Virus record (IMG/VR): IMGVR_UViG_3300042462_000689
Strand: one strand, 5' to 3'
Length of the DNA: 64,000 bases
Origin: a virus
The notes below the pieces were generated by a model. The model was not told the DNA's origin. It saw only the letters and a list, made by a program, of their open reading frames with translations, and did no database searches. A program made the translations under genes and the position numbers. Every line of letters begins with the position of its first letter. The stretch's first letter is position 1. Positions 24,986-63,007 of the stretch are shown in pieces.

Positions 24986-25070
24986 CACGAGAGCCATGTT
25001 CTCCTGCCATCAGGATTGGGAATTTAGAATCCGGAGTTGCCAATTGCGCGCCGTGCGGTAAAAAACTTCC

Positions 25071-26028: not shown

Positions 26029-26043
26029 TGGTATCGTCCTCTG

Positions 26044-26802: not shown

Positions 26803-26806
26803 CCCG

Positions 26807-27546: not shown

Positions 27547-27549
27547 GCA

Positions 27550-29331
27550 ATGGCGACAATACCCACTTCCGTCTGGCAACCCGATTTGATTTCCACCTAC
27601 TTCCCTGCATTGGGTGAGATGTCCACCGTGGCGCTGGCCTCCGCGCGTGCCCGCATTCAGAGCTACCTGCTCGTCGGGTGGCCGGATGTGGACATGCGCC
27701 CCGGCTCGGTCATTGGGGATTTGGTATTGGGTCCGTTTGCGCATCTCGTCGTCGCACTTGAAACATCCATGGGTCGGTTCATGTCCGATTTGGATTTCGA
27801 GCAGGTCGCCAGCGGCACGATCTTCAATTGTGAGTTCGTCACTGCCTTCCTGAAAAACTTCGCCGTGTATGAGCAGGATTCACTGAAGAGCACCGGCGTC
27901 ATCCGGCTGCTGTTCAATGCGGATGCGGAAGTCACCCTGGATCGTCGACTGCGATTTGCCATCGGAACGGGTACGTTCTCGATGCGGCTGCCGTTTCCTG
28001 GACAGATGCTGATTCGCCCCGTCGGCAATGCCATCACACCCGCGACCAACAGCCTCAACCTGGTGGACATCGGAGGCGGAGTTTACGCAGTGGACATTCA
28101 CGTCACCGGCACCATGGGGGCGCTGGTGACCCAGGGCGATTCAGCAACGCTCGACATGACCATCGCCGGATTGGTGAGCGCCGCGGCCGTCGTGGATTTT
28201 GAGGCCGGCAGTCCCGAGACATCCCTACCGACTCTGGCCACACAAGCACGCGAGCGGTTCTCCGCCAGCGCGCTGGTCACCCGCAATGCATCCGTCAATT
28301 ACCTGAAGCGGGAGTTTCCTGAACTGCGGGGCGTCAGCGTCACGCTCCCCGGAGATGCGGAAATGCTGCGGGCTTCTGTGAATGCGCTGGGCATTGCGGC
28401 ACCAGCGGCCGACATTTACGCCAAGTCCAGGGCGTGGGATTTCCACGACACGCAAGTCATTCGCGTTCCCTTCGTCACAACCCAGGGGGTGGTCTCGGTC
28501 AACCAGTTCATCACCCCGTTGTTGGTCTCGGGCAATCCGACGCTCGTGCGCAGCATTGTCAGCGTGGACGCGCCCTCGGTGATTATCACGCCAGGTGTTG
28601 AGTGCGACATCTACTCGCAGTCCTCGGACAGCGTAAAGGCCCCGCTGCTGACCTGCGCCGGCACCTCCCTTGAGCAGTTGTGGGCGGTGTTCCCGATGCC
28701 TCGCAATCCGACGACTGGTGTTGCTTTGGTTCCGCTGAACACGGAGGCCGACGGCTCCCAGTATGCCAATTTCAAAATCACCTACGTGCACGACCCTTTG
28801 CTGCAGCCGGTCGCCCAGCATCTCGACAACCCGGACGTCGCGCCGGTCAATTTTTCGGCCCTGGTTCGTCCTTTCATCCCGATCGTGCTTTCGCGGTTTG
28901 AGGTCGTCTACACCAAGCGCGCAGGCATGACCATGACCCTGGATGCCGCCAGGACCGAGATTTACAATTACCTGCGCGGTCTCTCCTACCCGGACGTGTA
29001 TTCGGATGCGAAGATCGGAGACGCCATGCTTTATGCTGGAGCCCAGGATGTGCGGGAAATTTCCATTGCCGGATCCCTGCAATGGAGCGCTGCCAACTAC
29101 GTGCTACCGGCGACTGCATCCACGCCAGTGGAGGATTTGGCTGCGGCCATCGCTGACCGCCGCGCCGCGCCCTCCGTCTTTGCCGGTTCCGCCGCAGGGC
29201 TGGTGATGGCCGCGCCATTTGTGGATCCGGTGCTCGGCACGGGCAGTGAGACATTTGCCACGGCGGGCTCCAGGAATATCACCCTGTTGCTGCAGCCTTC
29301 GACCATCACCTTCCGGGAGGAGCTGAGATAG
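27550..29331 (+). CDS. Baseplate J-like wedge protein
   Basis: PDVDMRPGSVIGDLVL N-terminus; AGSPETSLPTLATQARERFS motif. Confidence 0.75.
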   Translation: MATIPTSVWQPDLISTYFPALGEMSTVALASARARIQSYLLVGWPDVDMRPGSVIGDLVLGPFAHLVVALETSMGRFMSDLDFEQVASGTIFNCEFVTAFLKNFAVYEQDSLKSTGVIRLLFNADAEVTLDRRLRFAIGTGTFSMRLPFPGQMLIRPVGNAITPATNSLNLVDIGGGVYAVDIHVTGTMGALVTQGDSATLDMTIAGLVSAAAVVDFEAGSPETSLPTLATQARERFSASALVTRNASVNYLKREFPELRGVSVTLPGDAEMLRASVNALGIAAPAADIYAKSRAWDFHDTQVIRVPFVTTQGVVSVNQFITPLLVSGNPTLVRSIVSVDAPSVIITPGVECDIYSQSSDSVKAPLLTCAGTSLEQLWAVFPMPRNPTTGVALVPLNTEADGSQYANFKITYVHDPLLQPVAQHLDNPDVAPVNFSALVRPFIPIVLSRFEVVYTKRAGMTMTLDAARTEIYNYLRGLSYPDVYSDAKIGDAMLYAGAQDVREISIAGSLQWSAANYVLPATASTPVEDLAAAIADRRAAPSVFAGSAAGLVMAAPFVDPVLGTGSETFATAGSRNITLLLQPSTITFREELR

Positions 29332-30707
29332 TGGACCCCCTGCTTTCACAGCGCTACGACCTCTACGGACGGCTGGGAGATCTGTGGTCGCAAAAGGTCA
29401 AAGGCGCAGAGCAGCAAAAGGCCCGGCATCTGACTGCCCTCGCCCGGCACACCGCCAGCCAGGCGCATTTGATTTCCGGCATGCAACTGCTCGCCGGGCA
29501 ATCGACCTCCATCCGGGAGAACCTGGATTTGAATTACAAGCAGACGGACGTGATTCCGATCGGCGCCAACCTGCAGACCAGGAATCGTGTGAATTTTTCA
29601 GACGGCACCACGGCGTTCACTTTCTGGCGCAGACCAGCGGCGGGCTCTTGGGAGTTCTCATTTACAGGACACACGCCAGCGGGAGGAGAGGACGACATCC
29701 TATTGTCCACGGAGACGGACGATATCCTGCTGATGCCAGGTGGCACGCTGAATATCCCCATGCCCGAGGACTGGGCCGTGAACTACCTGCTGAAGATTCC
29801 GTTTAATTTGACTCCCTTGAAATTACGGGCAGCGGATGGAAGGGCGCTGTTCGCCGGAGCGGATTACGTCTGCGGCGTGGGCGTGCTGGGATTCCTACAT
29901 CATCCCGATACCATTTTCACCGGGCAGACCGTGCACGTTGCGAGTGCGTTCAAGGTCGAGGACCATCCGTTCAATTACACCCTGCAGGTGGATCCGGTAT
30001 TTGGTTCCGTCGAGGATATCGCCACCTACCAACGCGGCGCGCAGACTCCTTCCACGTTTCTGCGGGCGCTGGCCCGTGCCTGCAATTTCCAAGTGGCGCC
30101 GGCCGCGAGCATGGTCCGCGAGGTCATGCGCGGCGGCGGTCGTTTCTTTTACGGCTTCGACTGGGGACTCGTAGCGGTCGACTACCCGCACGAGGAATTG
30201 CATGTCGGGGATTCCGTAGTCGCTGGCGAGATCATCGGACAGCCGATCTCCATGCACAGCGCCACCAACGGCAATTCGGCGTGGTGGGCAGCCTTGGACT
30301 GGTCCGATGGGCTGGTGCTGGACGGGCTGTGTGCCTTCCCTGGACTGACCGCCCCCAATGAACCGCGCCGCGCCTATGCCGTGGATGAGGATGACGACGT
30401 GCATGTGCGAATTGATTTGGATGGTCCGACAGATCAACAGGATCTGTTCTGGGCGTCCGTGAAGCGCAATGAATTGCTGACCGGGAATTACCTGAATTCG
30501 GTTGTCGGGCTCTCCTCCATCTCGGACGTCAAATTTGTGAACCCGCTGCGGTTGATGTTCGAATACCTGCTCGGGGCCTGCGGCATCGTCATCACCCGCC
30601 GCAATGTCGGGCAATGGAGTGGCAGCAATCGCGCCCGATTTGAGAATTTTGTGTCGAGGGAGAAACCAATGGGTGCCATTGTGATTGTGCGCGATACCGC
30701 CGTGTAA
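29331..30707 (+). CDS. Baseplate wedge subunit (gp7/I-like)
   Basis: Follows baseplate J with 1-nt overlap (GTG start); last gene of the structural operon. Confidence 0.5.
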   Translation: MDPLLSQRYDLYGRLGDLWSQKVKGAEQQKARHLTALARHTASQAHLISGMQLLAGQSTSIRENLDLNYKQTDVIPIGANLQTRNRVNFSDGTTAFTFWRRPAAGSWEFSFTGHTPAGGEDDILLSTETDDILLMPGGTLNIPMPEDWAVNYLLKIPFNLTPLKLRAADGRALFAGADYVCGVGVLGFLHHPDTIFTGQTVHVASAFKVEDHPFNYTLQVDPVFGSVEDIATYQRGAQTPSTFLRALARACNFQVAPAASMVREVMRGGGRFFYGFDWGLVAVDYPHEELHVGDSVVAGEIIGQPISMHSATNGNSAWWAALDWSDGLVLDGLCAFPGLTAPNEPRRAYAVDEDDDVHVRIDLDGPTDQQDLFWASVKRNELLTGNYLNSVVGLSSISDVKFVNPLRLMFEYLLGACGIVITRRNVGQWSGSNRARFENFVSREKPMGAIVIVRDTAV

Positions 30708-30727
30708 TAGCCGGGGGTGGGTGGGGT

Positions 30728-30761
30728 GAAATATGGACGCCCAGCGCGTCATATACAAATG
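30728..30761 (+). promoter_or_regulatory. Conserved 34-bp promoter-like motif, copy A
   Basis: GAAATA tggacgccca GCGCG t CATATA c AAATG; same spacing as copies at 35754 and 36196. Confidence 0.7.
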
Positions 30762-31333
30762 TGAAGAAGGCTTCCTCTTCCATCCCGCAGCGCGCGTTGT
30801 GCGCTCCGGATATGGGCGGTCCATCCGCCTCGGGTGCTCCCGTGACAGAGCCGCTGCCCTACGGGTGTGTGGGCACTCGCGCCGAAGCGGAGGCGCAGAA
30901 GGCGCAAGCCCTGACGCGCGGTGCTATCACCGCGCAGGTTCACCACCTCGACGCAATCCCCGAACAGCGCCGCGATTTCCCCGCGGTGGGGGTCGCTGAG
31001 GCCGCCATTCTCAGCGATGGCACCTCCGAGGAGAGGGCGGCGCTGGCGTGGGCTCAGGCGTCGTATTGGGCGCGTGGCGGGCGCACACTCGATTCAATCG
31101 TCGAGTGTCTCGCCTCGGACCTGGAGGAGGGAACCTCCAATGGCGCCGGTAGCGAGGCGCACGGCTTCATTGCCGCACTGGAGCGTCGGCTGGAGGCGGC
31201 TCCGCGTGAGTCGCGGGTAGTCGTATCAGCACGCGCTGAGTGCTGGACGGTGGCGGCGGAGTTCCCGGAGGCGGACGGTCCCGATACTTCGGGTTTTGCC
31301 CACGGGCAGGACTTCGAGGGAGGCAGCTGGTAG
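30761..31333 (+). CDS. Hypothetical protein overlapping a hairpin-dense region (start uncertain)
   Basis: Open frame with coding-like GC3 and triple stop TAG TAG TAA; also many nested stems. Confidence 0.4.
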   Translation: MKKASSSIPQRALCAPDMGGPSASGAPVTEPLPYGCVGTRAEAEAQKAQALTRGAITAQVHHLDAIPEQRRDFPAVGVAEAAILSDGTSEERAALAWAQASYWARGGRTLDSIVECLASDLEEGTSNGAGSEAHGFIAALERRLEAAPRESRVVVSARAECWTVAAEFPEADGPDTSGFAHGQDFEGGSW

Positions 31334-31458
31334 TAGTAATGGCCCCGTGAGCCGATAAAGAAACGGCAGAATTTACAACGATGCAGTCATAAAAAGAGCT
31401 GCGGTCGAATCGTTGAGTTTCCACTGTGAAAAGGAAACTGTGTAGATGAGGAATTTTC

Positions 31459-31773
31459 ATGAAATTCATCAATCTCACACCACACGCCATTCACCTGAAT
31501 GACGGCCGTGTGTTCGAACCCTCTGGCCAGGTGGCCAGGGTCGGCTCGACCTACACGCCGTTCGACGGTGACGGTGTCTGTCAGGCTGTGTTCGGAGAAG
31601 TCCAGAACCTGCCCGACAAGGTGGAAGGAACGATGCTCATCGTCTCCGGAATGGTCAGCCAAGTGGTTGACGGTTACCGGAGCGACGTAGTGTCGCCTGC
31701 CACCGGGCACCCGGACACGAAGCGTGACGAGAAGGGCCAGATCAAGTCTGTGCCCGGATTCGTCCGCGCGTGA
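31459..31773 (+). CDS. Conserved phage hypothetical protein (NLTPH family)
   Basis: NLTPHAIHL...PSGQVARV...LP...LIVS...DVVSPATG...RDEKGQI pattern common in phages; GAGG upstream. Confidence 0.75.
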   Translation: MKFINLTPHAIHLNDGRVFEPSGQVARVGSTYTPFDGDGVCQAVFGEVQNLPDKVEGTMLIVSGMVSQVVDGYRSDVVSPATGHPDTKRDEKGQIKSVPGFVRA

Positions 31774-31805
31774 CCGAGGCGTGTGCTGCTGCATTTGGCA
31801 AGCGG

Positions 31806-31984
31806 GGCTCTGGCGAGCCTGTCAACAGAATCGCCCGGCACCATACAGACGCCTCTTCGTGGCGGTGCTAGAAACCGACAATTACGTCGGGCCAAGTCTC
31901 AGGTGATGGTCAAAAGAAGTGCCTCACCGCCCTCCCCGGAATCCCGAACCGGCGGTTGTAAAGTCGTGAAAGGCGGCAAGGGGA
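31806..31984 (+). ncRNA. Candidate structured intergenic RNA/leader
   Basis: Consecutive stems GGCTC/GAGCC, GCAC+CGCC/GGCG+GTGC, CCGAC/GTCGG, GGTGA/TCACC, TCCCC/GGGGA. Confidence 0.35.
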
Positions 31985-31990
31985 TGGTTA

Positions 31991-32254
31991 ATGACAAAAC
32001 CACCAGTGGGTAAGGCGGAAATCCAAGAAATCGACGGACGGCGGTTCTTGGTGGCGGAGTTGCCCGCCGAAACGGCAACCTGCGATGATCACATCGCAGA
32101 GCTCGTCGCCGGCCGCCCGGTCGTAGTGCCCTTTAGCAAAAGAGGGCACATGATCGGGAGGTTGAAGGCCCAGGGGGTCTTTACCACCTCAAAGCAGGTG
32201 GTCGCGGGGCAGTGGATCGCATTCTTCCCGTGTGCGCCGCGGGAGTGGAAGTAG
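31991..32254 (+). CDS. Small hypothetical protein
   Basis: 87-aa ORF followed by a terminator. Confidence 0.55.
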   Translation: MTKPPVGKAEIQEIDGRRFLVAELPAETATCDDHIAELVAGRPVVVPFSKRGHMIGRLKAQGVFTTSKQVVAGQWIAFFPCAPREWK

Positions 32255-32263
32255 CGGTCCGTC

Positions 32264-32311
32264 AGCGGGAATTGTCCGGGGGTAATTCCCCGGCGGTTCC
32301 CGCTTTCTTTT
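32264..32311 (+). terminator. Terminator-like nested hairpin
   Basis: AGCGGGAA...CCGGGG-gtaatt-CCCCGG...TTCCCGCT, then TTCTTTT. Confidence 0.6.
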
Positions 32312-32409
32312 AGGTGTGGCATCCCTGTCAGACCGCGGACCTGCGCCCCTTTTTTTTTCGCTGGTAGTTCCCACGCCCCAAGATTCACATTTGGCTTTGC
32401 AGCATTACG

Positions 32410-32847
32410 ATGTCATGCTTGGTGCAATTCGACATGCTCACACTCGCCCGCCAAGCCCTCGTAGATTTCACCGCCGACGACGCCTCCGCGTCCCAGCATT
32501 CCTGGCCCTTGAAGGTGGACGTGACACAGGACATCGGCGGTACCTTGTCGCCCAAGGTGTTCGTGTTCCATGCGCTGTTGCGGGATGCTGCATCAGCCGG
32601 GGATCGCTTCGAGGCAATTGCTTCCATCCACCAAATGGCTGATTTGCCCGAGGACGCCCCTTCCTACACGCCCGGCAATGACTACGCCATTCCGTTCTAC
32701 CGGCTCAGCTCGCTGACGTTCCATTGCACCTCCCCGACCGAGGCCGATGATCTGTGGGCGATCATCCAGGCAGACGTGACTGATTTGATCGAGGCGCACA
32801 ATTCCCTGCTGTCCCTGCAGACCACCGAAACCATTTCCATCCCGTGA
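32410..32847 (+). CDS. Hypothetical protein
   Basis: 145-aa ORF with coding-like codon use. Confidence 0.65.
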   Translation: MSCLVQFDMLTLARQALVDFTADDASASQHSWPLKVDVTQDIGGTLSPKVFVFHALLRDAASAGDRFEAIASIHQMADLPEDAPSYTPGNDYAIPFYRLSSLTFHCTSPTEADDLWAIIQADVTDLIEAHNSLLSLQTTETISIP

Positions 32848-33233
32848 GCACCCCATTCGTATTTGCAATCCCCGGCATGATGCCGCCTGCCACGCCCCAC
32901 AAGGATGCCCAGCTTCCTGTATTACGGGATGGATCGGCACGCATGTCCCTGGGAATATCCGCGGGCGAGAATCTACGCCCGGCGATCATTGACGTGTTCG
33001 ATGCCAAGGGGGTGCATCTCTATTGCGACAATACCGGCACGCATACGCTAGAGGTCACACAACCCGGAGGCCTCGCCGAGTACATCCAGCAATTCCCCGC
33101 CGGCACATTCCCACCGACGCCATGCAAGGTGTTCGTCACTTTGAAATCAGGAGATCAGATTGAAATGGTGGCAGGGCCGACGGATGTGGAGCGGGCGGCA
33201 TTTATTTGGCCTTGGGTGCCGCCGGAGAGCTAG
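32844..33233 (+). CDS. Hypothetical protein
   Basis: 129-aa ORF coupled by GTGA overlap. Confidence 0.6.
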   Translation: MSTPFVFAIPGMMPPATPHKDAQLPVLRDGSARMSLGISAGENLRPAIIDVFDAKGVHLYCDNTGTHTLEVTQPGGLAEYIQQFPAGTFPPTPCKVFVTLKSGDQIEMVAGPTDVERAAFIWPWVPPES

Positions 33234-35707
33234 CTCATCTCCACAATCTTCGGCAGCCCCTCGTAGTTCATCGGCGGTGTCTTGCCTCCGTAGAAATTCT
33301 CCAGCAGCCCAATCATGCTGTGCACGTCCGCCGTGCAAATGCCGTTCTCAATGGAGGCGCTGCGGCATTCACGCGTCATCTCCAGCAGCAGGTCCTGCAG
33401 GTCCACGTCCTTGATGGTGCCCAGCCGGATGGAGATGGTCTGGTTGGTGATGTGTTGCGTGAAGAATTCGGTGCCTCGGGCAAAGGGGATCTGATTGAGC
33501 AGGCGCTCAACGGTCTGATGCAGCGGCTGGGACATGGGCCATTCGAGGCCGGTGGCATTGCGTATGATGGAGGCCCCCTCCCGCGCCAGTGCCGCCGAAT
33601 TGCTCACGCTGCTGAATACCTTCAGGGCCGACCCCTGCGTGCCCATAATCCATTGCACACATTGCTGCATAATCCGCGGCACCATGAGCATCACCCGGCT
33701 CATCGTCGCATCGTCCACCGCACAATGCACCGCCTGCCCGTAATCGCTCAAGGACACAAGTGCCTGTTTTGATTTCTCCATCTGCCCCTGTGAGGCGCCG
33801 GTGACGAGCATGGGGAATCCTCGGCAGCCTTTGATCTCCACGCTGGATCCTTCCCGCGAGGAGAACGAGTATGGCTCCAATTGCCCAAGCGCCCGGAACA
33901 AATTGCGCATGATGTAATTGCCCTCCGGGGTGTAGATCAGACAGACCGGTTTCGTGGGGAAATCGGCGTAGCCACGTCCGACCATGCCAACGAGCTGGCT
34001 GATCAAATCTGCCACTGCCACGGGCACATCGGTCGTATTCTCGCCAGGCACCGGGGTCAGGGTGAGATCGTAAATTTTCCAGAAATCGCAAAGTGGATTG
34101 CCGTAGCGGATGTCCGGATTCCATTCCTTCGCCGTGACCTTGCCCCATGGCGTCATGAAGGCTTTGCGGCGCTCCGTCCAGCCCACGCCATCCAACCCCT
34201 CCACGCGCGGCAGGTTCTCGCTGATGGATCGGAAATAGACCAGAAGCTCCCTTGCATAATTGCGCTCGCGAATTGTTGGAAGTTTTCCGGCGGGATTATC
34301 TTCCGGCTTCGCCAGCTCCGACACACGCGCCGCATCTTCCAAAGTACTGAGTGCCTGCAATTGCTGACTGGTGAGCGAAAACGGATATTCCTTCCCCTGA
34401 AACTGCAGGACGCCCATGTGACAGGTCGCCTTGGAATCCACGAACACCACGTTGTTGCGCAATTCGAGGGTGAAATTCGTGAGGTCCACTTTCGAGCCAT
34501 CATCCCGGATGACATGATAGCCGTGGGCGGTGCGGTAATAGGAAAGGCTGCCGTCCTGGTGGATGAGCCGGGTCTGCCGGATACGCTCGACGGTGGCGGC
34601 CCAGTCCAGCTTCCCGTCCTGCTGCAGCTCGGAGATTAGCGCGGTGTAATGCCGGTCGCTGTATCTCAGGGCGCTGATGAGTAGCCCCACGCCCGCGTCC
34701 ACCCCCTTTCGCGCATGTGCTGCCTCCGCCACATGACGCACCACAAAATCATCCCAGGTTTCTAATTGATCATCCTCCGCCCGCTTCACGCTCACCCTCC
34801 CATTGATGGCCAACTCCGCCACTCCCGAGAGCCCGGCCGCGGATTCCTTTCGTAGATGAAAAGTCACTTCCTGCGGCTCCCACAACTTCTCCGAGCATTT
34901 GGGGCGGTAATGCACGCAGACCGCGAACCGGTCCCGAAAGGCCACGGCATTGACCGAATTGGCAGCCAGCGCCATGGAGTCGCTGGTGTGCAATTCGATG
35001 CGCTGACAATGCGGGTGAATGTCCAGCAGGCCGGTGTAGGCGAAGCGGCACTCATTGAGCCAGTTGACGATTACATCCTCGGGCCGTCCTGAAGGGTAGG
35101 CCATCCACCCCGTAATCACCGCCGGCGAGGAGTACAGCGGAATCACCACCGCGGCCTGGGAATTGGAAATGGGAAGCGGGGAGAGGGTGGCGTCCGGGTA
35201 GGCCGTGGTCGCCTTTTTGACGAACTCCTTGTAGCGCGCCCCGCTCAGCACCAGACACGAAGCGGACTGCGCTGCGATTTGGATGCCAGCGGTGCGCAGC
35301 CAGCCTGCCGTCTGCACCTCTGCAATCATCATCGAATTGCCCGACATCTCGGAGGCTTCCAGCAGGAATTGAATCAGGGCCCGGCGGTCCTCCAATTGGT
35401 GGGCAATCTGGCTGATGTCCGGATCGGGGTCGTGGGCGAAGCGGGAAGGGTAGGCCGTGAGGACGCTTTTGACGGCGGTTTTGTATCCGCCATCCAGCAG
35501 GGCCATGAAGTCCATCGCCGTGCCTACACGGAACTTGCAGCGCTTGTGTTCGCAAATGGCGTAGGTGGAAAAGGCATGCAGGGCGCCTCCACAGGACGGG
35601 CATTTGAGCAGCAGGCTGCGCGTGCCGCTCGTGACTTCCCCTTTGTGGAAATCATGAAGCACTTCGAGCATCGTAATTGATCGTTCGAGAAACTCAGGTG
35701 AGAGCAT
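33230..35707 (-). CDS. Primase-like protein (N-terminal Zn-binding domain, degenerate core, DUF927-like C-terminus)
   Basis: CPSCGG...CEHKRC...GTAMDF zinc-ribbon pattern; VVIPLY...ITGW; GWTERRKAFMTP; start placed at MLSPEFL (35707). Confidence 0.5.
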   Translation of the reverse strand: MLSPEFLERSITMLEVLHDFHKGEVTSGTRSLLLKCPSCGGALHAFSTYAICEHKRCKFRVGTAMDFMALLDGGYKTAVKSVLTAYPSRFAHDPDPDISQIAHQLEDRRALIQFLLEASEMSGNSMMIAEVQTAGWLRTAGIQIAAQSASCLVLSGARYKEFVKKATTAYPDATLSPLPISNSQAAVVIPLYSSPAVITGWMAYPSGRPEDVIVNWLNECRFAYTGLLDIHPHCQRIELHTSDSMALAANSVNAVAFRDRFAVCVHYRPKCSEKLWEPQEVTFHLRKESAAGLSGVAELAINGRVSVKRAEDDQLETWDDFVVRHVAEAAHARKGVDAGVGLLISALRYSDRHYTALISELQQDGKLDWAATVERIRQTRLIHQDGSLSYYRTAHGYHVIRDDGSKVDLTNFTLELRNNVVFVDSKATCHMGVLQFQGKEYPFSLTSQQLQALSTLEDAARVSELAKPEDNPAGKLPTIRERNYARELLVYFRSISENLPRVEGLDGVGWTERRKAFMTPWGKVTAKEWNPDIRYGNPLCDFWKIYDLTLTPVPGENTTDVPVAVADLISQLVGMVGRGYADFPTKPVCLIYTPEGNYIMRNLFRALGQLEPYSFSSREGSSVEIKGCRGFPMLVTGASQGQMEKSKQALVSLSDYGQAVHCAVDDATMSRVMLMVPRIMQQCVQWIMGTQGSALKVFSSVSNSAALAREGASIIRNATGLEWPMSQPLHQTVERLLNQIPFARGTEFFTQHITNQTISIRLGTIKDVDLQDLLLEMTRECRSASIENGICTADVHSMIGLLENFYGGKTPPMNYEGLPKIVEMS

Positions 35708-35753
35708 GTTCGATGTCAGCCTACGCCTCAAATTGCTTACGGGCAATCCCCAT

Positions 35754-35787
35754 GAAATACGGGGCGTTTGCGCGCCATATACAAATG
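35754..35787 (+). promoter_or_regulatory. Conserved 34-bp promoter-like motif, copy B
   Basis: GAAATA cggggcgttt GCGCG c CATATA c AAATG, followed by GAAAGCGA-ctc-TCGCTTTC hairpin. Confidence 0.7.
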
Positions 35788-35835
35788 ACGAAAGCGACTC
35801 TCGCTTTCACACCAAACTCAACCAAAACAACTCAA

Positions 35836-36087
35836 ATGAAAAAATTACTGATTATAATCCTGCTCGCGGTCGCGTTTCTGATTTGCCGCACCGGCCTCCC
35901 CACGGAGGTGACGTTCGAAAACCTCGCCATCCGCAAAGGCGCCGGTGTGGTGGACCAGGCAGCCGCACGGCTGCTGCTGGTGGTCATCAAACCCACCATC
36001 AAAGACTACGTGGTCTTCAAGACCGCGGAGTGGAAGAGCCTGACATTGGTCTGCTTGCCATTCGGCAAGTGGGGCACGTTGGAGTAA
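35836..36087 (+). CDS. Small exported/membrane protein
   Basis: MKKLLIIILLAVAFLIC signal-like N-terminus (ATG 35836). Confidence 0.6.
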   Translation: MKKLLIIILLAVAFLICRTGLPTEVTFENLAIRKGAGVVDQAAARLLLVVIKPTIKDYVVFKTAEWKSLTLVCLPFGKWGTLE

Positions 36088-36096
36088 AATTCTCGC

Positions 36097-36136
36097 GCGG
36101 GGGCGTTATCCCCCGCAGGGGCAGGTGCCCCTTTTT
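36097..36136 (+). terminator. Tandem hairpin terminator
   Basis: GCGGGGG/CCCCCGC then AGGGGC-AGGT-GCCCCT plus T-tract. Confidence 0.7.
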
Positions 36137-36195
36137 CGCTGGCAGTTTTATCCCAGGTCATGCGTAACCCAGGATACCGCACACCTGGGATACGC

Positions 36196-36229
36196 GAAAT
36201 AAGGACACGCAGCGCGTCATATAGAAATG
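36196..36229 (+). promoter_or_regulatory. Conserved 34-bp promoter-like motif, copy C
   Basis: GAAATA aggacacgca GCGCG t CATATA g AAATG; preceded by inverted repeat TATCCCAGG(36149)/CCTGGGATA(36184). Confidence 0.7.
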
Positions 36230-36231
36230 CA

Positions 36232-36556
36232 GAAGGTGATTCATATCCCCGACATCTTCCGAGTTTCCTGAAGCTCCTGGTTTAGCGATGAACCCACATG
36301 AACGGACGCGTCTCATGTGCTGTAATATTTCGCGCAGGGGTTTCAGAAAGTTCGGAAACTTTCGACCTTCCGCAGTGCGCGCCTGTGGTCTAGCAGGACG
36401 TATCGGTGCTCTGCCTCGCCCGCTCCTTCAAGGCGGGTAGGTGATTCTCCGGATCTCAGTTGTCTATTATTCGACACAAGGAGAGATTCCCGAGCAGGCG
36501 CGCATTGCGGCCCTTTTCAAATAAACAAAGCCACCAATGAGGTGTGCTTTTGTTTT
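36232..36556 (+). ncRNA. Candidate multi-domain structured ncRNA (unknown family)
   Basis: 16-bp stem 36370-85/36495-510, 12-bp stem 36268-79/36335-46, closing stem 36232-37/36365-70 and further hairpins with G-U pairs; no ORF of 60 aa or more in the ORF track starts before 36456. Confidence 0.6.
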
Positions 36557-36605
36557 CGGTATCAGATCTGGAACAGCAGTCAATTAAACCCAACAACCAA
36601 CCCAA

Positions 36606-38600
36606 ATGAAAACTCAAGAACTCAAACCCATCACAGGAACCGTCAGCAAGAAATTTATCGAGAAGGTCGATCGGTATTTCAACCACAGCAAGGAGACCAT
36701 CATCGTCGAACTCATCCAGAATGCCCGACGTGCCGGAGCCACGGAGATGCGCTGGACCATCGAGCCCGCCGGCCCTGAGCAATGCAGCATCACCGTCACC
36801 GACGACGGCTGCGGCGTCGAAGATCCGGCAGTGCTGCTCACACTCGGCGAATCAGGTTGGGATGCAGGCATTCAGACGGACGAGGATCCCGCCGGTGCCG
36901 GTTTCTTTTCGCTCTGTGGTCTGAGCGGGGCCGTGCATGTCTCCAGTCACAACTGGCGTATGACGCTCGACAAGGCCATCTTCACGCACGGGAAGGAGAC
37001 GCTCCCCTGCGCCACCAAGTCGCCCATCAAAGGCATGCGGCTGGAATTCATCACGAATGCGGAGAAGTCGGAATACTACGCGCACCATACCGCGGTAACT
37101 CGATGGATGGACGCTGTGGAGAAATGCTCCAAATACTGCGGGCTGAAAGTCAGCATCAACGATAAGCGCGTAAAGCAGGAGGATTTCCTGGCGGACGCAG
37201 AAGCGGTGGTGGAATGGAACGGTATCCGTATTGGGATTCACAATCGCCAGAAGCTGAGCGGCTATTCACTGGACCATGACGCGAACACCGCAAACTTCCA
37301 TGGCTGCGTGCTCGCCACACCCAAAATGCCCGAAGTCGGGGATTTCGGGAATGACGGCAAAAGCAAATATGCCGCAATCTTGGACATCCGGAACACCCAG
37401 CACATCAAGCTGGTCCTGCCGGCGCGCAACGGGATCTTACAGGATGCCAATTGGGAATTGCTCAAGACGCACATCGAGCGCCTGCTGGTCGAGCACGGAC
37501 TGAAGCGGCACGAAGGGAAACACCGGATGCCGTTTACGACGTATCAGCGCTTCAAGGCCATCGGCGTCGAATTGCCCGAGGCAGTGTCGTATTTGAAAGC
37601 AGTCTGCATCAAATGCCGTGACCATTATTCGGAACTGCAATACCCGGAGTTCGACAACGACATGGATCGTCGCGTGGATGTAAGGCATGGCCATCCGGTG
37701 CTGGTTCCCAATCTGGACGACAACGGGCTGAATCTGACGATGGCAATTGCCTTTGCGTGTAATTCGGTTTCTGTCACACCCGAGATTAAAGCTGAAGGTG
37801 GTTTCGATGTGGACGGTGCATTTGAACTACCCAAATTGGATGATTGCCTGAATATGCAATTCGTCCGCGCCAACGGCAATTTCAGCGGGTATTCCTGGTA
37901 TGACCGCCTGCCGTTCATCGAGGAGGACTCCGTGAAGTTCACGGTGAAGCAGGGCAAGCATGGAGTGTACACGAGCGAAGGCCAAAGCGACGCCCTGCAT
38001 ATGCCGCAGGGCCCGGATGAGCTGGCCTCGGAGATCCTGGTGGATTTCATCATCGAAAAGCCGGTGAGGGACAAGGGGATGGGCGAGAAGCGAGCACACA
38101 TCAATCTGCAACTGGAGACAGTGGCGTATTTCCGCACCGCCGACTGCTCGCATGTGGAGGACGGAAGCTGGGCATTTGCAAAGGCGTTACTCCCGGCGGA
38201 TAGCGGAGCCGAGGCGAACAATGCGCAGACCAAGGAGCGGGACATCCGCAGCCAGGCGGAGAACTGGATGTTGATTGCCTTCTGCGATCCACCGGATGAT
38301 TCGGATCATGAGGACAGCACCGCTGATGCGCAAAGCACCTGGACCTGCCGGAAAATGAAACAGGTGCTGCTGTCCCCGGAGAAGGCGTTTCAGGAGGCCA
38401 TTGAGGGTCAAGTTCGATCGCTGCTCAGCTCGGATGAATTCAATAAGGCCCGTCGCAAATCTGGAATCATCGGGTTGACTGTGGACTTCGAATATGGCGA
38501 TCAGCGTCCGGTCGGAGAGAAGCATTACAAATACTCAGAGAACAAGATGACGATTACGTTTCACAAGAAGGAAGCAACAACCATCAAAGGTAAATGCTGA
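36606..38600 (+). CDS. GHKL (HSP90/MutL/sacsin-like) ATPase domain protein
   Basis: ELIQNARRAGA (N box), TDDGCG (G1), GAGFFSL (G2). Confidence 0.8.
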   Translation: MKTQELKPITGTVSKKFIEKVDRYFNHSKETIIVELIQNARRAGATEMRWTIEPAGPEQCSITVTDDGCGVEDPAVLLTLGESGWDAGIQTDEDPAGAGFFSLCGLSGAVHVSSHNWRMTLDKAIFTHGKETLPCATKSPIKGMRLEFITNAEKSEYYAHHTAVTRWMDAVEKCSKYCGLKVSINDKRVKQEDFLADAEAVVEWNGIRIGIHNRQKLSGYSLDHDANTANFHGCVLATPKMPEVGDFGNDGKSKYAAILDIRNTQHIKLVLPARNGILQDANWELLKTHIERLLVEHGLKRHEGKHRMPFTTYQRFKAIGVELPEAVSYLKAVCIKCRDHYSELQYPEFDNDMDRRVDVRHGHPVLVPNLDDNGLNLTMAIAFACNSVSVTPEIKAEGGFDVDGAFELPKLDDCLNMQFVRANGNFSGYSWYDRLPFIEEDSVKFTVKQGKHGVYTSEGQSDALHMPQGPDELASEILVDFIIEKPVRDKGMGEKRAHINLQLETVAYFRTADCSHVEDGSWAFAKALLPADSGAEANNAQTKERDIRSQAENWMLIAFCDPPDDSDHEDSTADAQSTWTCRKMKQVLLSPEKAFQEAIEGQVRSLLSSDEFNKARRKSGIIGLTVDFEYGDQRPVGEKHYKYSENKMTITFHKKEATTIKGKC

Positions 38601-39013
38601 TCAAATGTGTCTGCTGTGGAAGCACCGCGCACGAGCACGCAGGCTGCATTGTGGCAGAGCGGGATGCATTGAAGTCCGCATTAGGGAAACTGCGCGAAGC
38701 GATGGAGCGCATCATCTGCGCCAATGGAGACTACTACACCGAAGCGCCCGAATGCGAACACGCCGTGGCTGAATTGCAGGACGCGATCCGGGCAGCGGCA
38801 AATATCATGCATCCTGCGATTCTTGACTTCGGCGTAATTGAAACAGGAGACCCACATCCCTCCCTGACGCATTTCCCGAACAAGGATCTTCGGGAAATCA
38901 TCACCGCGGCATCGCTGAAGGATTTGGAATTGCCGAAAGACGAGGCGTTCATTTCCATCATCGAGAAGCCCGCAGGCGATTCCGCAATTGCGAAACCAGA
39001 ACCCACAGGGTAA
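38594..39013 (+). CDS. Hypothetical protein
   Basis: 139-aa ORF with CVCCG and coiled-coil segment. Confidence 0.5.
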   Translation: MLIKCVCCGSTAHEHAGCIVAERDALKSALGKLREAMERIICANGDYYTEAPECEHAVAELQDAIRAAANIMHPAILDFGVIETGDPHPSLTHFPNKDLREIITAASLKDLELPKDEAFISIIEKPAGDSAIAKPEPTG

Positions 39014-39022
39014 TCTCCCCAC

Positions 39023-40105
39023 ATGCTGCGCGACATCATCTCAGACAAAAACCCATCTTTCCTCACGGTCATCGAACTCCCCGACTGGGTGAAACAGGCC
39101 GAGGTCATCTCCGACGACGAGGTGAAAAACCTGCACGCCTCCGCCTTTGCGGACCCGGTGCATCGGAAGCATCCCATGCATTCCAAGGTGGCGGCCTACA
39201 TGAGCGCCGTATATTTGGGAGCGCAGGGCGTGCCGGACACGGCCCCCGAGCTGCAGGCCGTCAAATCCGCCTCCGCAGTGTTTGGCATTGGTCATGAGGT
39301 CGCCGATATCCTCAGCAACCTGCGCGCGCAGGTCAAATCGGCCGCCGCCCCTGAATCGCTCCCGCGCTTTGCGCTGACGGTTAAGGTGGCGGCGGAAGAC
39401 AGCGAACCGACGGGCTTCTACCCGCTGACGTCCGCCGTGCAGATTCAGGACTCCGCGGTCCAATTGGTGAAGGACTTCAATTCCGGCACCGGTGAGCTGC
39501 CTGTGGATTGGTTCAAATCGGCCAGCGAGACCATCATGCGGGTCGCCCCGAGCTTCGGGCTGGCTGCCGATGAATTGCCCGCGGACGTGCGGGAAATGGC
39601 GGAACCTCGGGTGTTCGATCGCGACAAGGCGCTGGACCTCGTCGGGCATCGGAAGTTCGCCGGCGTCAGCGATGAATTGCTGGAGGTCTATCGGGACACG
39701 GTCAAATCCGCCGGTGCCGAAGGCGGCATCACAGTGGAGGAGGCCGTCTCGCTCATTGAAACCCTGGATCGCGCATCGGGAATCAAATACAGCACGGTGT
39801 TCGTGAATCCGTGGCGCATCTTCCACAGCGGCCCTTCGGTGGAAGCATTGAAGAAGGTGGCGTCGCAGTCGGTGTTCCTGGATCAGGTCATGATCCCAGC
39901 GATTCATTTCAGCACGCTCAATGAGGCGTCCGTGCGCTCGGCGCTGGGCAAGGAAACGGCGGACACGGTGATGCAGGCTGTGAAGCTGGCTTCTACCAAT
40001 CCCGGCGAGGCATCGGCGCTGCTGGCGCTGCTGCCAGCGGAGGTGCAGCGCGAGGTGCTTGTCGTGACACATACGACCCTGCGCGGCCTGTCCTCAGCGG
40101 CGTAA
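39023..40105 (+). CDS. Hypothetical protein, probable head/internal protein
   Basis: 360 aa, structural-gene codon bias, dense K-x-A(A/S/G) motifs. Confidence 0.65.
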   Translation: MLRDIISDKNPSFLTVIELPDWVKQAEVISDDEVKNLHASAFADPVHRKHPMHSKVAAYMSAVYLGAQGVPDTAPELQAVKSASAVFGIGHEVADILSNLRAQVKSAAAPESLPRFALTVKVAAEDSEPTGFYPLTSAVQIQDSAVQLVKDFNSGTGELPVDWFKSASETIMRVAPSFGLAADELPADVREMAEPRVFDRDKALDLVGHRKFAGVSDELLEVYRDTVKSAGAEGGITVEEAVSLIETLDRASGIKYSTVFVNPWRIFHSGPSVEALKKVASQSVFLDQVMIPAIHFSTLNEASVRSALGKETADTVMQAVKLASTNPGEASALLALLPAEVQREVLVVTHTTLRGLSSAA

Positions 40106-40110
40106 CGCAC

Positions 40111-40665
40111 ATGGCGAAGCTCGACAGCAAAACTGTCAAAGAGGCATTCGATCACGACGACACGCCGGCGATCGTGCTTTTCGCAATCGTCTGCAAGGCG
40201 TATCCCTGGATCCTGCCCACGGGGGACAACCCGGATCATGAGCCCGTAGATGCCATCACCATTTGGACATCCCTGCGGCATCAATTCGGAATTGTGACGT
40301 CGGTGGAGGCCGAGAACAAAATCATGGCGATGCTGACGGCAGTGGAGACGGACCTATACTACGAAAATCCGGAGATGTTCAAATCCATCACCGGGGCCAT
40401 TTGCCACGGGGATGTGGACGATGCCATCAACGGGAGTCTGTCGGATATCTCCGGCGCGGAGGCGTCCATTGCAATGCATGAGATTGATTTGGTGCGCGGC
40501 GAGGAGCATCCGGAATATGCGCCAGCGGTGCAGGAGATCATCAATCGCGAATTGAAGGAGGAGGCGAATGATGATGAGGATGGTGCGGATTTGCAGGAGG
40601 TGCTGCAGCGGCACGACAGTGAAATCAAGGACTGGCTCAAGCGATTGGGTCTTTCCGCAACCTGA
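40111..40665 (+). CDS. Acidic hypothetical protein
   Basis: 184-aa ORF 5 nt after the previous stop. Confidence 0.65.
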   Translation: MAKLDSKTVKEAFDHDDTPAIVLFAIVCKAYPWILPTGDNPDHEPVDAITIWTSLRHQFGIVTSVEAENKIMAMLTAVETDLYYENPEMFKSITGAICHGDVDDAINGSLSDISGAEASIAMHEIDLVRGEEHPEYAPAVQEIINRELKEEANDDEDGADLQEVLQRHDSEIKDWLKRLGLSAT

Positions 40666-40676
40666 AGATAAATAAA

Positions 40677-40853
40677 ATGAGTAAAGAAGACGCGGTACTT
40701 ATATTGCGCGCACTGAATGATGGGGATCTGTTTTACGCCCTGCGGGATATCATGCAAGGGCGTCGGGTAGAATACGCGGAGGCTGGTGATGAATACGGAC
40801 ACGCGACACGGGAAGCCAAACTCGCAGTGATTCGGCACATCCTGGGCGAGTGA
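40677..40853 (+). CDS. Small hypothetical protein
   Basis: 58 aa MSKEDAVLILRAL...RHILGE, translated by hand; A-rich upstream. Confidence 0.45.
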   Translation: MSKEDAVLILRALNDGDLFYALRDIMQGRRVEYAEAGDEYGHATREAKLAVIRHILGE

Positions 40854-41038
40854 GCAAAAAGAGTGAGCCCACGATGAGCATGGGCACATGGATGGCAACT
40901 GAGGGAGGACGCAAGTGTCCGCTGTGCGGACGCTATGCCAAAGCGCGTGAACTTGGCTGGCTCGGATTCAACACACCGACACTGTGCCTCGATATGTATG
41001 GTCACCTGCCTGGAAAGGGCTGCAACCGCAGAAAGTGA
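40850..41038 (+). CDS. Small Cys-containing hypothetical protein
   Basis: CPLCG motif; GTGA overlap with upstream ORF. Confidence 0.4.
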   Translation: MSKKSEPTMSMGTWMATEGGRKCPLCGRYAKARELGWLGFNTPTLCLDMYGHLPGKGCNRRK

Positions 41039-41055
41039 AAAACCAAACAAACCAA

Positions 41056-41256
41056 ATGAGTAAACAAAAGACCGGATCCCATCGCACCGCCCACAAGCGG
41101 AAGGATGGCATCCTTGAAATCGCAGGACTGGTCTCGCAGAAGGACCACCACACGATGAAGCGGATGGAGAAGAAACTTGAGGGACTAACCGTAAGGGAAT
41201 TCGCCGAGCAGACTTCGCAGCCTGGTATTCCTGGGTGGATTGAGAGGACTGCGTGA
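41056..41256 (+). CDS. Small hypothetical protein
   Basis: ATG 41056 after accaa; within ORF 40984..41256. Confidence 0.45.
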   Translation: MSKQKTGSHRTAHKRKDGILEIAGLVSQKDHHTMKRMEKKLEGLTVREFAEQTSQPGIPGWIERTA

Positions 41257-41531
41257 GCATCTTCCGCCCGCATCGACAGCCGGCGCAATTGCTTTATGAT
41301 GTATTCGAGGCAGAGGCAAAGCACCGCAAAGACAAGACGGTAGAAGATTGGATCTTGGACGAGCGGGAGGTCGTCTGGCGCGCAGCCCGAGACTGGGCGC
41401 AGCAAAATGGGAAGCCAGTCCCCACGATGGAAATGGTGAAGAAGGCAGAGAGATACGCATGCGGGCACACGGACTACGGAGCCAAATGGGCGTATGCGCT
41501 GGTGGAGGAAATGCAGAAGCAGGAATTATAA
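41253..41531 (+). CDS. Small hypothetical phage protein
   Basis: 92 aa; ACGHTDYGAKWA motif; coupled start. Confidence 0.55.
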   Translation: MSIFRPHRQPAQLLYDVFEAEAKHRKDKTVEDWILDEREVVWRAARDWAQQNGKPVPTMEMVKKAERYACGHTDYGAKWAYALVEEMQKQEL

Positions 41532-41535
41532 GCAA

Positions 41536-41772
41536 ATGACTGACGAAGAAAATCAAAAGCTAGTCCTGAATTTACGCCATGCTGTGGTATGCATGCGCCG
41601 TAATGCGGCGGAACTGAAAAGCGGAGAGGGATACTCATTCCCGCAATTGCAACCGCAGAGAGATGCGTCTGCTGGGACACTGGAGTTTTGGGCTGGAGAG
41701 CTGGAACGCATGATCCCTACAACTCAGCCCGAGATCACCCGCGACCCTCCCCCAAATGCCCCGGTCGAGTGA
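41536..41772 (+). CDS. Small hypothetical protein
   Basis: ATG 41536; overlaps the terminase 3' end convergently. Confidence 0.4.
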   Translation: MTDEENQKLVLNLRHAVVCMRRNAAELKSGEGYSFPQLQPQRDASAGTLEFWAGELERMIPTTQPEITRDPPPNAPVE

Positions 41773-43643
41773 ACGCCCGTCTTGAAATTGCGCTGCATCT
41801 CCAATTGCAACCCGCGGTCGAGCAGCAGAGGCTCGCCCATAATCAGCCGCCCCAACACGATGGCGAAATTCAGGGCATGGAGGGTGTCGTCGGGCTTTGA
41901 GCCGGAGCGGATGTAGCGGAAGGACTGCTGGCCGGCGGAGAGGTCACCAGGGGCGCGGTACATGTTCAGCAGATCGGAGAGGCAGGGCTTGGCCTCCTCC
42001 CATCGGTAGCAGCTCAGGCGCGAAGCATTGCGGATGACATCAAACAGGAACGTGATGCTCTCATTGCGGTTGATGCTGTAGTGGTTCGTCATCGAGGTGC
42101 TGGCGGGCCGCGCGACCATCGGGGAGCCGGGAGGAAGGGCGTAGCCCAGTGCGTAATGGCTGGATGCCAGCACGCCCTCCTCCTTGCGGAGCAGCAGATT
42201 GTAGGTGGCGCCGGCCGAGAAATCCGAGGCGATGAAACTGCCATGCCCGCGCTTGTGGGCCTGGGCGATTTTATGGAGGATGACGTCGTAGGCCATGCCT
42301 GCGTATTTAGACATGCTGATGATTTCCATCTTGTTGTAGGCCGTCAGCCCGAGCATGACGTGCACGGTGTAGGACTGCTTGGTCTTGTCCGCGGGATTCC
42401 AGTCGCTACCGCCCCAGTCAATTCCTGAAACCACATGGCGGTATCCTCCCTGCTGTGCACGGGCCAGCCTGCGCTCCGAGGTTTCCTCGGGATTGCAGAT
42501 GTCCTCCAAATCTTTCTCTGAGATTTCCCGCAGGCCGTCCTCGCTGGGGATGCCCATTACTTCCTGCATCCATTTCTTTACCTGCCCCATCTGGGTGTAG
42601 TCCTTCAGAGACTGGAACAGCGGGATCCACTGGATGGGATCGACTACGAACTCGGAAATCAGAATCTGCGGTATGTGGTAGGATTTGAATCCGGCCTCTG
42701 CGCGACCGGGATGCGCATGCACATACTCACCATCCTCCATGTTGAGTATCTTGCCTGTGTGCGGACAGGTGGGGCCTTCCACCTGGATGATGGGTAAGAT
42801 TTCTTCCGGGTCGCCGCAGTTGACCCAGTGCTTCCCGTCCGGACAGCGGACGTGCCATGTGCCCATGCTGCCCTGCTGAAACTTCGTTTCGAGCGCGGAA
42901 TCGAGCGTGAGTGAGGTGCCTGCAAACGTCTTGCACTTCAATGATTTCGATCTCAGCACCTGCTCGACTTCAGGCAGCAAATTCACATCGAACCCCTGAA
43001 ATTCGTCAAAAAGCAAATCAGATCCGGTCTTTCCGCGCGCATCTGAGGCGGTAGTAGCCACGCGCACCAACTCGATGAGTGACTGGTTCGGATACTCTTT
43101 CAGGTTCAGATTAGACCGATACCCCTTGGGCGTAGAATGGTATCGAAAGCAGCGCTCCATCTCGCGCAGCTTGGTCGCGTACGTGCGCATGTGCTGGGTG
43201 TGAGGTGCCACGTAGATGGATCGAAATCCTGGAAGCAAATGGGTCAGCACCAGCTGTCGTGCACTGAATGTGGTCGACTTGGAAACCTGCCGGCTTGCTC
43301 GAATCGTGGTCTCTCCACCGGAGTTGATCTCCGTCATTACGAACGCAAATGGTCGATTCAGAAGGGACAGCGGCCTGCGCAGAGGAGCGGCGGGAGTCCC
43401 CAACTCCACGGCATCTGGATCTTCAGGCAAAGACTCAATCGCCTCCGGAAAGAAATAAGGCAGGATCGGCCCGCAGTTGTAGTCGCATTTGCGGAAGATG
43501 TCCTGGATGATGCGGGCGGCCTCCGGGCTGTAGGGAGCCCCATCGCCAAGCTGCGCCTCCAATTGGATCATCTCCTGACTGAGACGATCCAATTCATTGA
43601 CGAACTTCGCATTCGTCAGTAATTCATGGTACAAGTCGAACAT
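41724..43643 (-). CDS. terL: Terminase large subunit (lambda gpA-like)
   Basis: Walker A RQVSKST, RGKTGSDLLFDEFQ, AGTSLTLD, nuclease GIDWG and KPDDTLHALNF; start at ATG 43643 with GAGGTG upstream. Confidence 0.85.
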   Translation of the reverse strand: MFDLYHELLTNAKFVNELDRLSQEMIQLEAQLGDGAPYSPEAARIIQDIFRKCDYNCGPILPYFFPEAIESLPEDPDAVELGTPAAPLRRPLSLLNRPFAFVMTEINSGGETTIRASRQVSKSTTFSARQLVLTHLLPGFRSIYVAPHTQHMRTYATKLREMERCFRYHSTPKGYRSNLNLKEYPNQSLIELVRVATTASDARGKTGSDLLFDEFQGFDVNLLPEVEQVLRSKSLKCKTFAGTSLTLDSALETKFQQGSMGTWHVRCPDGKHWVNCGDPEEILPIIQVEGPTCPHTGKILNMEDGEYVHAHPGRAEAGFKSYHIPQILISEFVVDPIQWIPLFQSLKDYTQMGQVKKWMQEVMGIPSEDGLREISEKDLEDICNPEETSERRLARAQQGGYRHVVSGIDWGGSDWNPADKTKQSYTVHVMLGLTAYNKMEIISMSKYAGMAYDVILHKIAQAHKRGHGSFIASDFSAGATYNLLLRKEEGVLASSHYALGYALPPGSPMVARPASTSMTNHYSINRNESITFLFDVIRNASRLSCYRWEEAKPCLSDLLNMYRAPGDLSAGQQSFRYIRSGSKPDDTLHALNFAIVLGRLIMGEPLLLDRGLQLEMQRNFKTGVHSTGAFGGGSRVISG

Positions 43644-43747
43644 GCCATCCACCTCACCGCAATCACTCCGCAAAGTCAAACCCGGCCAATTCCCGGCCGT
43701 CCGCTTCGGAACCGTCCCAACACTCAAACCAAAAACAATTGAACCAA

Positions 43748-44242
43748 ATGCCATCATCGAATCCGGCGACCACATCGCCGAGCCCGTCCCCGCAAGACCC
43801 GAAGGAAGCGCAGCCCAGCGGCGCGCCGACCGCTACAACTAATTGGGATTACCTCTGGAAGACGCCGGGGCCTCGAAAGCCCCGCCCCAAGGAAATCGCC
43901 AAACGCTACCCACGCCTGATGGCTGCCATCGGCGCTGCCATGAAGCGCTACGCGGAGGATCCTGCCACGCCGCCGGTCAGTTCCATTATCCTGGAGCCTG
44001 ACGACCTGCATCTGGATTTCCGCATCAGCCTGCGCACCGCAGACGGCACCACCAAGACCATCAAAGGCGACACCATCCTGCCGGACATCTTCGCCGTCAT
44101 GCAAATGCCGGGGGCCGTCAATAATTTCGAGGTCATCCTGCATCAGCTCGCCGTGAACCCGACACAGACGCGGTTCCAGTCGCTGCTGCAGGCCCGCGTG
44201 CAAGTCGAACAAACTCCGAATGACAGAATTCTGGGCTCTTGA
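43748..44242 (+). CDS. Hypothetical protein
   Basis: ATG 43748 after accaa; divergent from terL. Confidence 0.6.
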   Translation: MPSSNPATTSPSPSPQDPKEAQPSGAPTATTNWDYLWKTPGPRKPRPKEIAKRYPRLMAAIGAAMKRYAEDPATPPVSSIILEPDDLHLDFRISLRTADGTTKTIKGDTILPDIFAVMQMPGAVNNFEVILHQLAVNPTQTRFQSLLQARVQVEQTPNDRILGS

Positions 44243-62998: not shown

Positions 62999-63007
62999 CG
63001 GGTTCTC

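Follow-up and report, generated by a model that had tools for sequence, protein, structure and literature searches.

The window analysed here, a 64,000-nt stretch of DNA, covers positions 18521-82520 of the 185,656-bp IMG/VR phage record IMGVR_UViG_3300042462_000689, which possesses direct terminal repeats. The large terminase of this phage is at most 24% identical to that of any record in the phage collection and, judged by this protein, the phage therefore lies far from any isolate. An element of 325 nt (36232-36556) sits in a 518-nt gap of the window, which is bounded upstream by a terminated small gene on the plus strand and downstream by the start of a gene for a GHKL-type ATPase. The terminator of the small gene is predicted to insulate the element from upstream transcription. 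The ATPase gene, which opens a block of four genes running to 40665, is the likely cargo of a leader in this position. The coordinates of the features are collected in Table 1.

Table 1. Features at the ATPase locus, in positions of the window
Feature	Position	Strand	Description
Small upstream gene	35836-36087	+	Terminator at its 3' side
Terminator of the small gene	36117-36132	+	From terminator scan and sequence
Bipartite promoter-like motif (copy C)	36196-36229	+	GAAATA 36196-36201, 16-nt G+C-rich spacer, CATATA 36218-36223, invariant TG 36228-36229
5' arm of the 5'-terminal stem	36228-36237	+	Pairs with 36365-36374; inverted repeat with 36364-36374; in the MFE fold
Module A (inner part of domain 1)	36257-36359	+	103 nt; ~22-bp helix capped by a 7+3-bp hairpin
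12-bp helix	36268-36279 with 36335-36346		Two G-U pairs
7-bp helix	36295-36301 with 36313-36319
Domain 2	36370-36510	+	141 nt; closed by a 16-bp helix, with three hairpins inside
Closing helix of domain 2	36370-36385 with 36495-36510		16 bp
Inner hairpin of domain 2	36413-36423 with 36433-36442		Accompanied by two smaller inner hairpins
3' hairpin	36523-36556	+	A-tract upstream, T-tract downstream; -12.1 kcal/mol
A/C-rich spacer to the ATPase start codon	36557-36605	+	No Shine-Dalgarno sequence; nearly identical across three alleles
GHKL-type ATPase gene	36606-38600	+	664 aa; weak HATPase_c matches; first of four tightly packed genes
Phage sigma-70-family factor	45189-45851	+	220 aa; Pfam Sigma70_r2 and r4 (regions 2 and 4 only)

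The ATPase has no PADLOC match, no PDB sequence match and no strong Pfam match, and on the neighbouring genes PADLOC and PHROGs gave nothing informative except the large terminase at 41724-43775. Homologues of the ATPase and a common gene order are found in the relatives L023, L024 and L038, and IMG/VR scans for relatives of the protein returned none. Hundreds of homologues of ~555 aa occur in bacteria and on plasmids, among others in Agrobacterium, Shinella and Sphingobium; these, with P0004-P0120 among them, align with the phage protein of ~660 aa over the N-terminal half only.

The 3' hairpin of the element ends 50 nt upstream of the ATPase start, and no copy of the promoter motif occurs in the spacer between them. 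A search for a second promoter word before the ATPase start yielded too few consistent sites, and the recurring 10-mers proved to be A/C-rich leader words, with no clear second promoter among them. Such words, with no Shine-Dalgarno sequence, precede plus-strand gene starts in this spacer, at 35810-35835 and before many other genes, and gene starts of this type suggest a host with initiation that is independent of the Shine-Dalgarno sequence.

Promoter Motif and Predicted Start of the Transcript

The promoter-like motif upstream of the element is one of seven copies in the genome, all of which are located on the plus strand with invariant block positions. With two hexamer-like blocks, a spacing fixed at 16 nt (16-18 nt being usual) and co-oriented copies, it has the layout of a sigma-70-type bipartite promoter, and it can be aligned with the motif copies that precede the GHKL gene of L024 and L038, whose protein is ~31% identical. 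The preliminary description of this DNA had credited the element with its own promoter just upstream, and the seven co-oriented copies, together with their conservation in these two relatives, make that motif a credible one. Transcription would start at about 36226-36232. A candidate reader of the GAAATA-N16-CATATA motif is the phage sigma factor, which is the sole gene of the sigma-70 family in the genome and scores just above the cut-off of the NCBIfam sigma-70 superfamily model.

After every copy of the motif, a stem-loop starts 1-7 nt past the TG; the energies of these 5' stems are not exceptional in comparison with the genome background, and their regular position is suggestive of a meaning. 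Behind the copy at genome position 134452 lie 263 non-coding nt with a folding z-score of -7.6, and this leader ends in a perfect 27-bp hairpin and a T-tract directly before a 764-aa gene. Two further copies are also followed by structured leaders (z -2.7 and -3.5), and this promoter class therefore habitually has leaders that are structured and end in a terminator. The stretch at genome 134452-134754 (L043:12253-12555), which lies outside the window, shares the architecture of the element in unrelated sequence. Behind the copy at 30728, a 5' stem, the linker known from the element and a small G+C hairpin follow one another (30759-30815), with a likely ATG at 30813, and this stretch looks like a version of the leader that is free of the modules described below.

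A further non-coding stretch (63000-63210) opens with the 10-nt word that starts the transcripts of L038 and of the V3 allele introduced below (exact at 63016-63025) and reaches a T-tract shortly before a gene; it folds just mildly better than its shuffles (z -1.9), and no motif copy was seen upstream of it. An IMG/VR scan with the promoter and the transcript-start word found none.

Fold of the Element

All the helices listed in the preliminary description are present in the sequence, and nearly all of them also appear in the minimum-free-energy (MFE) fold. The whole element folds at -126.8 kcal/mol with a z-score of -5.4, and 0 of 100 shuffles were equally good, while separate folding gave z-scores of -3.5 for domain 1, -4.4 for domain 2 and -3.1 for the 3' hairpin. 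The closing helix of domain 1 (36232-36237 with 36365-36370) is found in the MFE fold and only partly in the centroid. The listed hairpin at 36346-36363 is absent from the MFE fold, where its 5' arm pairs with 36257-36266 instead; the local hairpin and the pairing of 36348-36357 with 36257-36266 are mutually exclusive. The latter pairing is stacked on the 12-bp helix, so that a near-continuous helix of ~22 bp arises (36257-36279 with 36335-36357, with one C.A mismatch), which is the long helix of module A.

No tRNA or tmRNA is contained in the element, as the preliminary description had stated. Across the whole window, Rfam 15 gave no match at gathering thresholds, and at E-values up to 10 it gave only chance-level miRNA and snoRNA matches of 13-19 bits against cut-offs of 40-86; the relatives L025 and L038 likewise returned nothing from Rfam, and BLAST of the region against 50,697 phage records yielded no match. 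The anticipated novelty with respect to Rfam is thus borne out, and as far as these collections reach, the element is new in sequence and restricted to a narrow clade.

The possibility that the locus holds no functional feature, being either a chance structure in a G+C-rich spacer or a small protein-coding gene, could draw on the small ORFs of 31-52 codons that are present on both strands, and it is nevertheless highly improbable. None of these ORFs is kept across the alleles: the 50-codon frame at 36288-36440, for instance, has lost its start in V3 and is altered in length in L025. The helices, in contrast, are maintained across the alleles, and none of the shuffles folds equally well. The element is real, strongly structured and non-coding, and on these points the preliminary description was correct.

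That description had further offered a choice between a leader for the GHKL ATPase and the partner or guide of an RNA-binding protein, such as the product of the gene at 54449-55108, which it had read as a RAMP. The position of the element fits the former, and the precedence of the same promoter before the gene in distant relatives is consistent with it. A guide or partner RNA, whether of the putative RAMP protein or of the ATPase, is exceedingly improbable, and its one argument is the presence of a structured RNA and of a RAMP-like reading of a gene in the same window. The gene lies 18 kb away and has no Pfam match, CRISPR-like repeats are absent, the element is not repeated in the genome, and no match of at least 13 nt to the rest of the phage genome was found in either orientation. 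Moreover, the content of the element varies while the flanking genes stay constant.

Alleles, Modules and Relatives

The ATPase protein cluster comprises 17 members, and comparison of the upstream DNA for 13 loci revealed three distinct alleles only, with lengths of ~330, 340 and 450 nt. Allele W, found in the window and in L034, consists of module A, domain 2 and the 3' hairpin. The L025 allele, which is identical in the independent assembly L047, contains the same parts and additionally a 123-nt module B in the 5' arm of the closing helix of domain 2. The V3 allele, represented by seven identical loci, lacks module A (alignment columns 30-132 in the two other alleles), carries module B, and has a shorter hairpin in place of 36413-36442.

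The enclosing helices accommodate these differences. In the window allele, the 5'-terminal stem encloses module A, and in V3 the same arm closes a small local hairpin. Module B is inserted between the positions corresponding to 36375 and 36376, and in the alleles that carry it, the 16-bp helix is made continuous again by a second copy of the arm. Every module is self-folding, and the modules are flanked by imperfect direct repeats of one leader sequence, which are ~10-17 nt long in general and ~17 nt long at module A; the terminal inverted repeats of module B measure 5-6 bp only.

The alleles occur in closely related strains, as the ATPases of strains that differ in module content are 88-100% identical. 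Since domains are present or absent among such strains and are missing in distant relatives, the view of the element as a multi-domain non-coding RNA in the sense of a conserved entity is not supported. In L023 (region 4914-5013), L032, L036 and L037, the locus is interrupted by scaffold gaps of exactly 100 N or by contig ends: two scaffolds carry the gaps, and two contigs stop exactly at module junctions. These breaks suggest the co-existence of several alleles within one sample. A deletion of the element, which the N-runs of L023 and L032 resemble at first, was rejected because runs of exactly 100 N are scaffold gaps.

Searches for the modules elsewhere were negative. No further copies were detected in the genome or among the relatives compared. 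With a covariance model built on domain 2, only domain 2 itself was retrieved from the whole genome and the distant relatives, and neither the module B words nor the domain 2 words brought up related sequence in IMG/VR. A scan of IMG/VR with the 16-mer of the closing helix gave 20 loci, all of which turned out to be chance matches on re-BLAST.

Protein-coding inserts were encountered at the same locus. In L025, and identically in L047, an extra cassette (L025:421-1023) lies between the small upstream ORFs and the RNA and comprises a promoter motif copy of its own together with a 5' stem, a 172-aa gene and a terminator; the 172-aa gene has no Pfam, PHROG or PADLOC match. By this comparison, the locus is a hot spot for the insertion of protein cassettes. 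The V3 and L025 strains also have a small ORF of 48-52 codons (L023:4657-4815, L028:1861-2019 and L025:159-305), which overlaps the end of the 82-aa gene and is missing in the strain of the window.

The distant relatives keep the promoter, a 5' stem and terminator-like hairpins, and the domains are missing from both L024 and L038. The leader of L038 is ~190 nt long (z -1.9), and the 203-kb contig L024 has a different non-coding leader, 270 nt long, in which two strong terminator hairpins occur (z -3.1); both possess a stem at the place of the 5' stem, with different arm sequences. L038 and V3 have the beginning of the transcript in common, as well as the 5' stem, the linker and what follows domain 2, and in L038 these backbone parts adjoin with no domains between them. 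Because of this adjacency, and because a 5' stem, the linker and a G+C hairpin also come after the copy at 30728, the two closing helices of the element may be read as the two hairpins of a short ancestral leader, with modules now filling its loops and junctions.

Selection on RNA or on DNA

The presence or absence of whole modules between near-identical strains is also what would be expected of palindromic insertions or recombination scars at the DNA level, in which selfish or neutral hairpin DNA (MITE- or PATE-like), or pieces stacked by recombination at a repeated leader sequence, would have produced the RNA fold as a by-product. The imperfect direct repeats around modules A and B, as well as the contigs and scaffolds that break at the junctions, fit such an origin. 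The same can be said of the helices, which are long and nearly perfect (12, 16 and ~22 bp) and thereby differ from typical ribozyme or riboswitch cores. Both strands fold well, the reverse strand reaching a z-score of -4.8. On the other hand, the modules are single-copy in the genome and the relatives compared, nothing related turned up in IMG/VR for the words of module B and domain 2, the terminal inverted repeats of module B are short, and the phage has no Y1 transposase.

The substitutions among the alleles provide a further point against the DNA-level origin. Seven one-sided transitions in helices all stay paired on the plus strand, as G-U or Watson-Crick pairs, and would give A.C mismatches on the opposite strand; one hairpin exhibits a clean swap of U-A to C-G, and two terminal pairs are broken. 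Pairing is thus kept in the sense of the plus strand, although single-stranded DNA hairpins on that strand could mimic this pattern. The plus-strand fold is more stable than the reverse in all three natural alleles, by 6, 18 and 10 kcal/mol.

The preliminary description had held that the G-U pairs favour selection at the RNA level. The pairing kept on the plus strand agrees with this, and the claim survives in a modest form, as the static counts of G-U against A.C favour the plus strand only modestly. Formal covariation is weak: among three near-identical sequences, 98% of cells are paired with three double changes, two of which lie in a re-aligned hairpin, and 14 of 500 shuffles were as good.

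Sequence identity gives no sign of extra constraint on the RNA segments relative to coding DNA. The segments common to W and V3 are 92% identical, as compared with 84% for the third codon positions of the ATPase and 96% for its first 600 nt, and purifying selection is unreadable from identity because the segments fall below the adjacent 600 nt of coding DNA. That identity does not exceed the neighbouring coding DNA is again compatible with DNA-level insertions. Taking the evidence on both sides, we consider an origin of the element by insertion or recombination at the DNA level unlikely, though still a serious alternative.

The 3' Hairpin and Putative Termination

The 3' hairpin resembles an intrinsic terminator. 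It possesses a bulged 6-bp G+C core and a 5-nt loop, and its T-tract is partly paired to the upstream A-tract; the tail is like that of the clear terminator of the small upstream gene. The hairpin was not called by the consensus terminator scan, probably on account of its bulges. It is kept in all three alleles, in which the changes are confined to the loop, to a bulge, or to a conversion of A-U to G-U. In 25001-45000, terminator-like sites show no enrichment.

A promoter and a terminator-like hairpin that bracket a non-coding unit would likewise suit a stand-alone phage RNA of ~330 nt acting in trans, perhaps as a scaffold for protein binding, as a sponge or as an anti-defence decoy, whose domains are quickly exchanged between strains. 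In L024, two tandem strong terminators follow after about 100-170 nt, as for a short RNA gene, and a short terminated transcript from a phage late promoter acts as a small RNA in the case described in PMC7547250. The locus is, moreover, a hot spot for accessory cassettes, exemplified by the 172-aa gene of L025 with its own promoter copy and the small ORF of V3 and L025, and the fast turnover of modules fits a function related to conflict. However, no domain is kept beyond the close clade, complementarity of at least 13 nt to the rest of the phage genome is lacking, no partner protein was identified, and no other promoter for the ATPase operon was found downstream. A trans-acting RNA is for these reasons improbable, though still a serious alternative.

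A related proposal, drawn by analogy, regards the locus as an RNA cassette site, at which self-folding domains would be gained, lost and swapped at a short conserved leader sequence downstream of a promoter dependent on the phage sigma factor, so that co-circulating strains would express different multi-domain RNAs acting in trans, such as decoys or sponges in the conflict between phage and host. We regard this extension as quite doubtful.

A Proposed Modular Leader of the ATPase Operon

The element is most simply a modular leader, that is, the transcribed 5' leader of the GHKL-ATPase operon or a promoter-proximal terminated transcript, and we give this explanation about an even chance of being correct. 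It is most likely a lineage-specific leader, and neither a widely conserved RNA family nor a guide RNA.

According to this proposal, transcription would start a few bases after the phage-specific two-block promoter, which is probably read by the sigma-70-family factor of the phage itself. The ancestral leader would have been short: first a stem-loop at the 5' terminus, next a brief conserved linker and a small G+C-rich hairpin, and finally, ahead of the start codon, a hairpin with its T-tract. In the clade of the window, its loops and junctions would have been filled by self-folding modules of 100-140 nt, namely module A, module B and the inside of domain 2. The RNA would act in cis, with the 3' hairpin and T-tract stopping part or most of the transcription, and the operon would therefore depend on read-through, which may be leaky, factor-dependent or polymerase-dependent. 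With regard to a dedicated factor, the genome lacks the Q antiterminator domain PF06530 and also a NusG/RfaH-like domain. For the 5' stem and the long helices, a role in protecting or processing the transcript is probable.

If the leader reading is true, an uncultivated lineage of large phages sets a promoter-proximal, terminator-ended structured leader before core operons, which would offer a way into the gene timing of a lineage that encodes a sigma factor of its own as well as split RNA polymerase genes. In addition, the natural alleles, three in all, constitute a rare and clean snapshot of the growth of a structured RNA: a simple leader has received entire hairpin domains in its loops and at its junctions, and the helices around them have remained intact. 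The confinement of the element to a narrow clade limits the value of this example, and the data do not separate an RNA function from insertion at the DNA level.

Comparison with Known Systems

GOLLD, ROOL, HEARO/omega RNA and the riboswitch or attenuator leaders of Rfam resemble the element in being multi-domain, phage-borne and non-coding. They differ from it in that no Rfam match and no core conserved in relatives was obtained here, and in that its helices are long and regular instead of forming compact tertiary cores. A riboswitch-type core conserved in diverged relatives was not found, the domains being missing in L024 and L038. No reverse transcriptase (RVT_1) matched anywhere in the phage, which separates the element from retrons.

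With MITEs, REP/BIME elements and IS200/IS605-derived PATEs, the modules have in common a self-folding unit of 100-140 nt, polymorphism in presence and absence, and short direct repeats at the borders. They are set apart by their single-copy state, by terminal inverted repeats of 5-6 bp, by the lack of a cognate transposase, and by their location inside one putative leader. The swapping of accessory protein genes at moron hot spots provides the analogy for the cassette-site proposal.

Stabilisers at the 5' terminus and leaders processed by RNase III are known from the ompA 5' stem-loop and from the RNase III sites in the early region of T7. Similar to these are the stem within a few nt of the putative 5' end after every promoter copy and, in the element, the near-continuous helices of 16 and ~22 bp, which are long enough for double-strand-specific processing; the difference is that the energies of the 5' stems are not exceptional.

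In the lambdoid late leader, the promoter PR' gives a short '6S' transcript that ends at the terminator tR', and the terminator is read through under Q antitermination. No similarity in sequence or structure connects this leader with the element, no Q-like or NusG-like gene was found in the present phage, the two-block promoter is a different one, and the leader here is far more structured and varies by whole modules. The likeness lies in the layout, as read from the sequence: a phage promoter, a non-coding transcript of a few hundred nt, a terminator or terminator-like hairpin, and a gene block, an order that recurs at 134452 and in L024. It would extend to the dependence of the gene block on read-through and possibly to a role of the short RNA of its own; in Shiga-toxin phages, the terminated RNA from the late promoter also acts as the small RNA StxS, as set out in PMC7547250.
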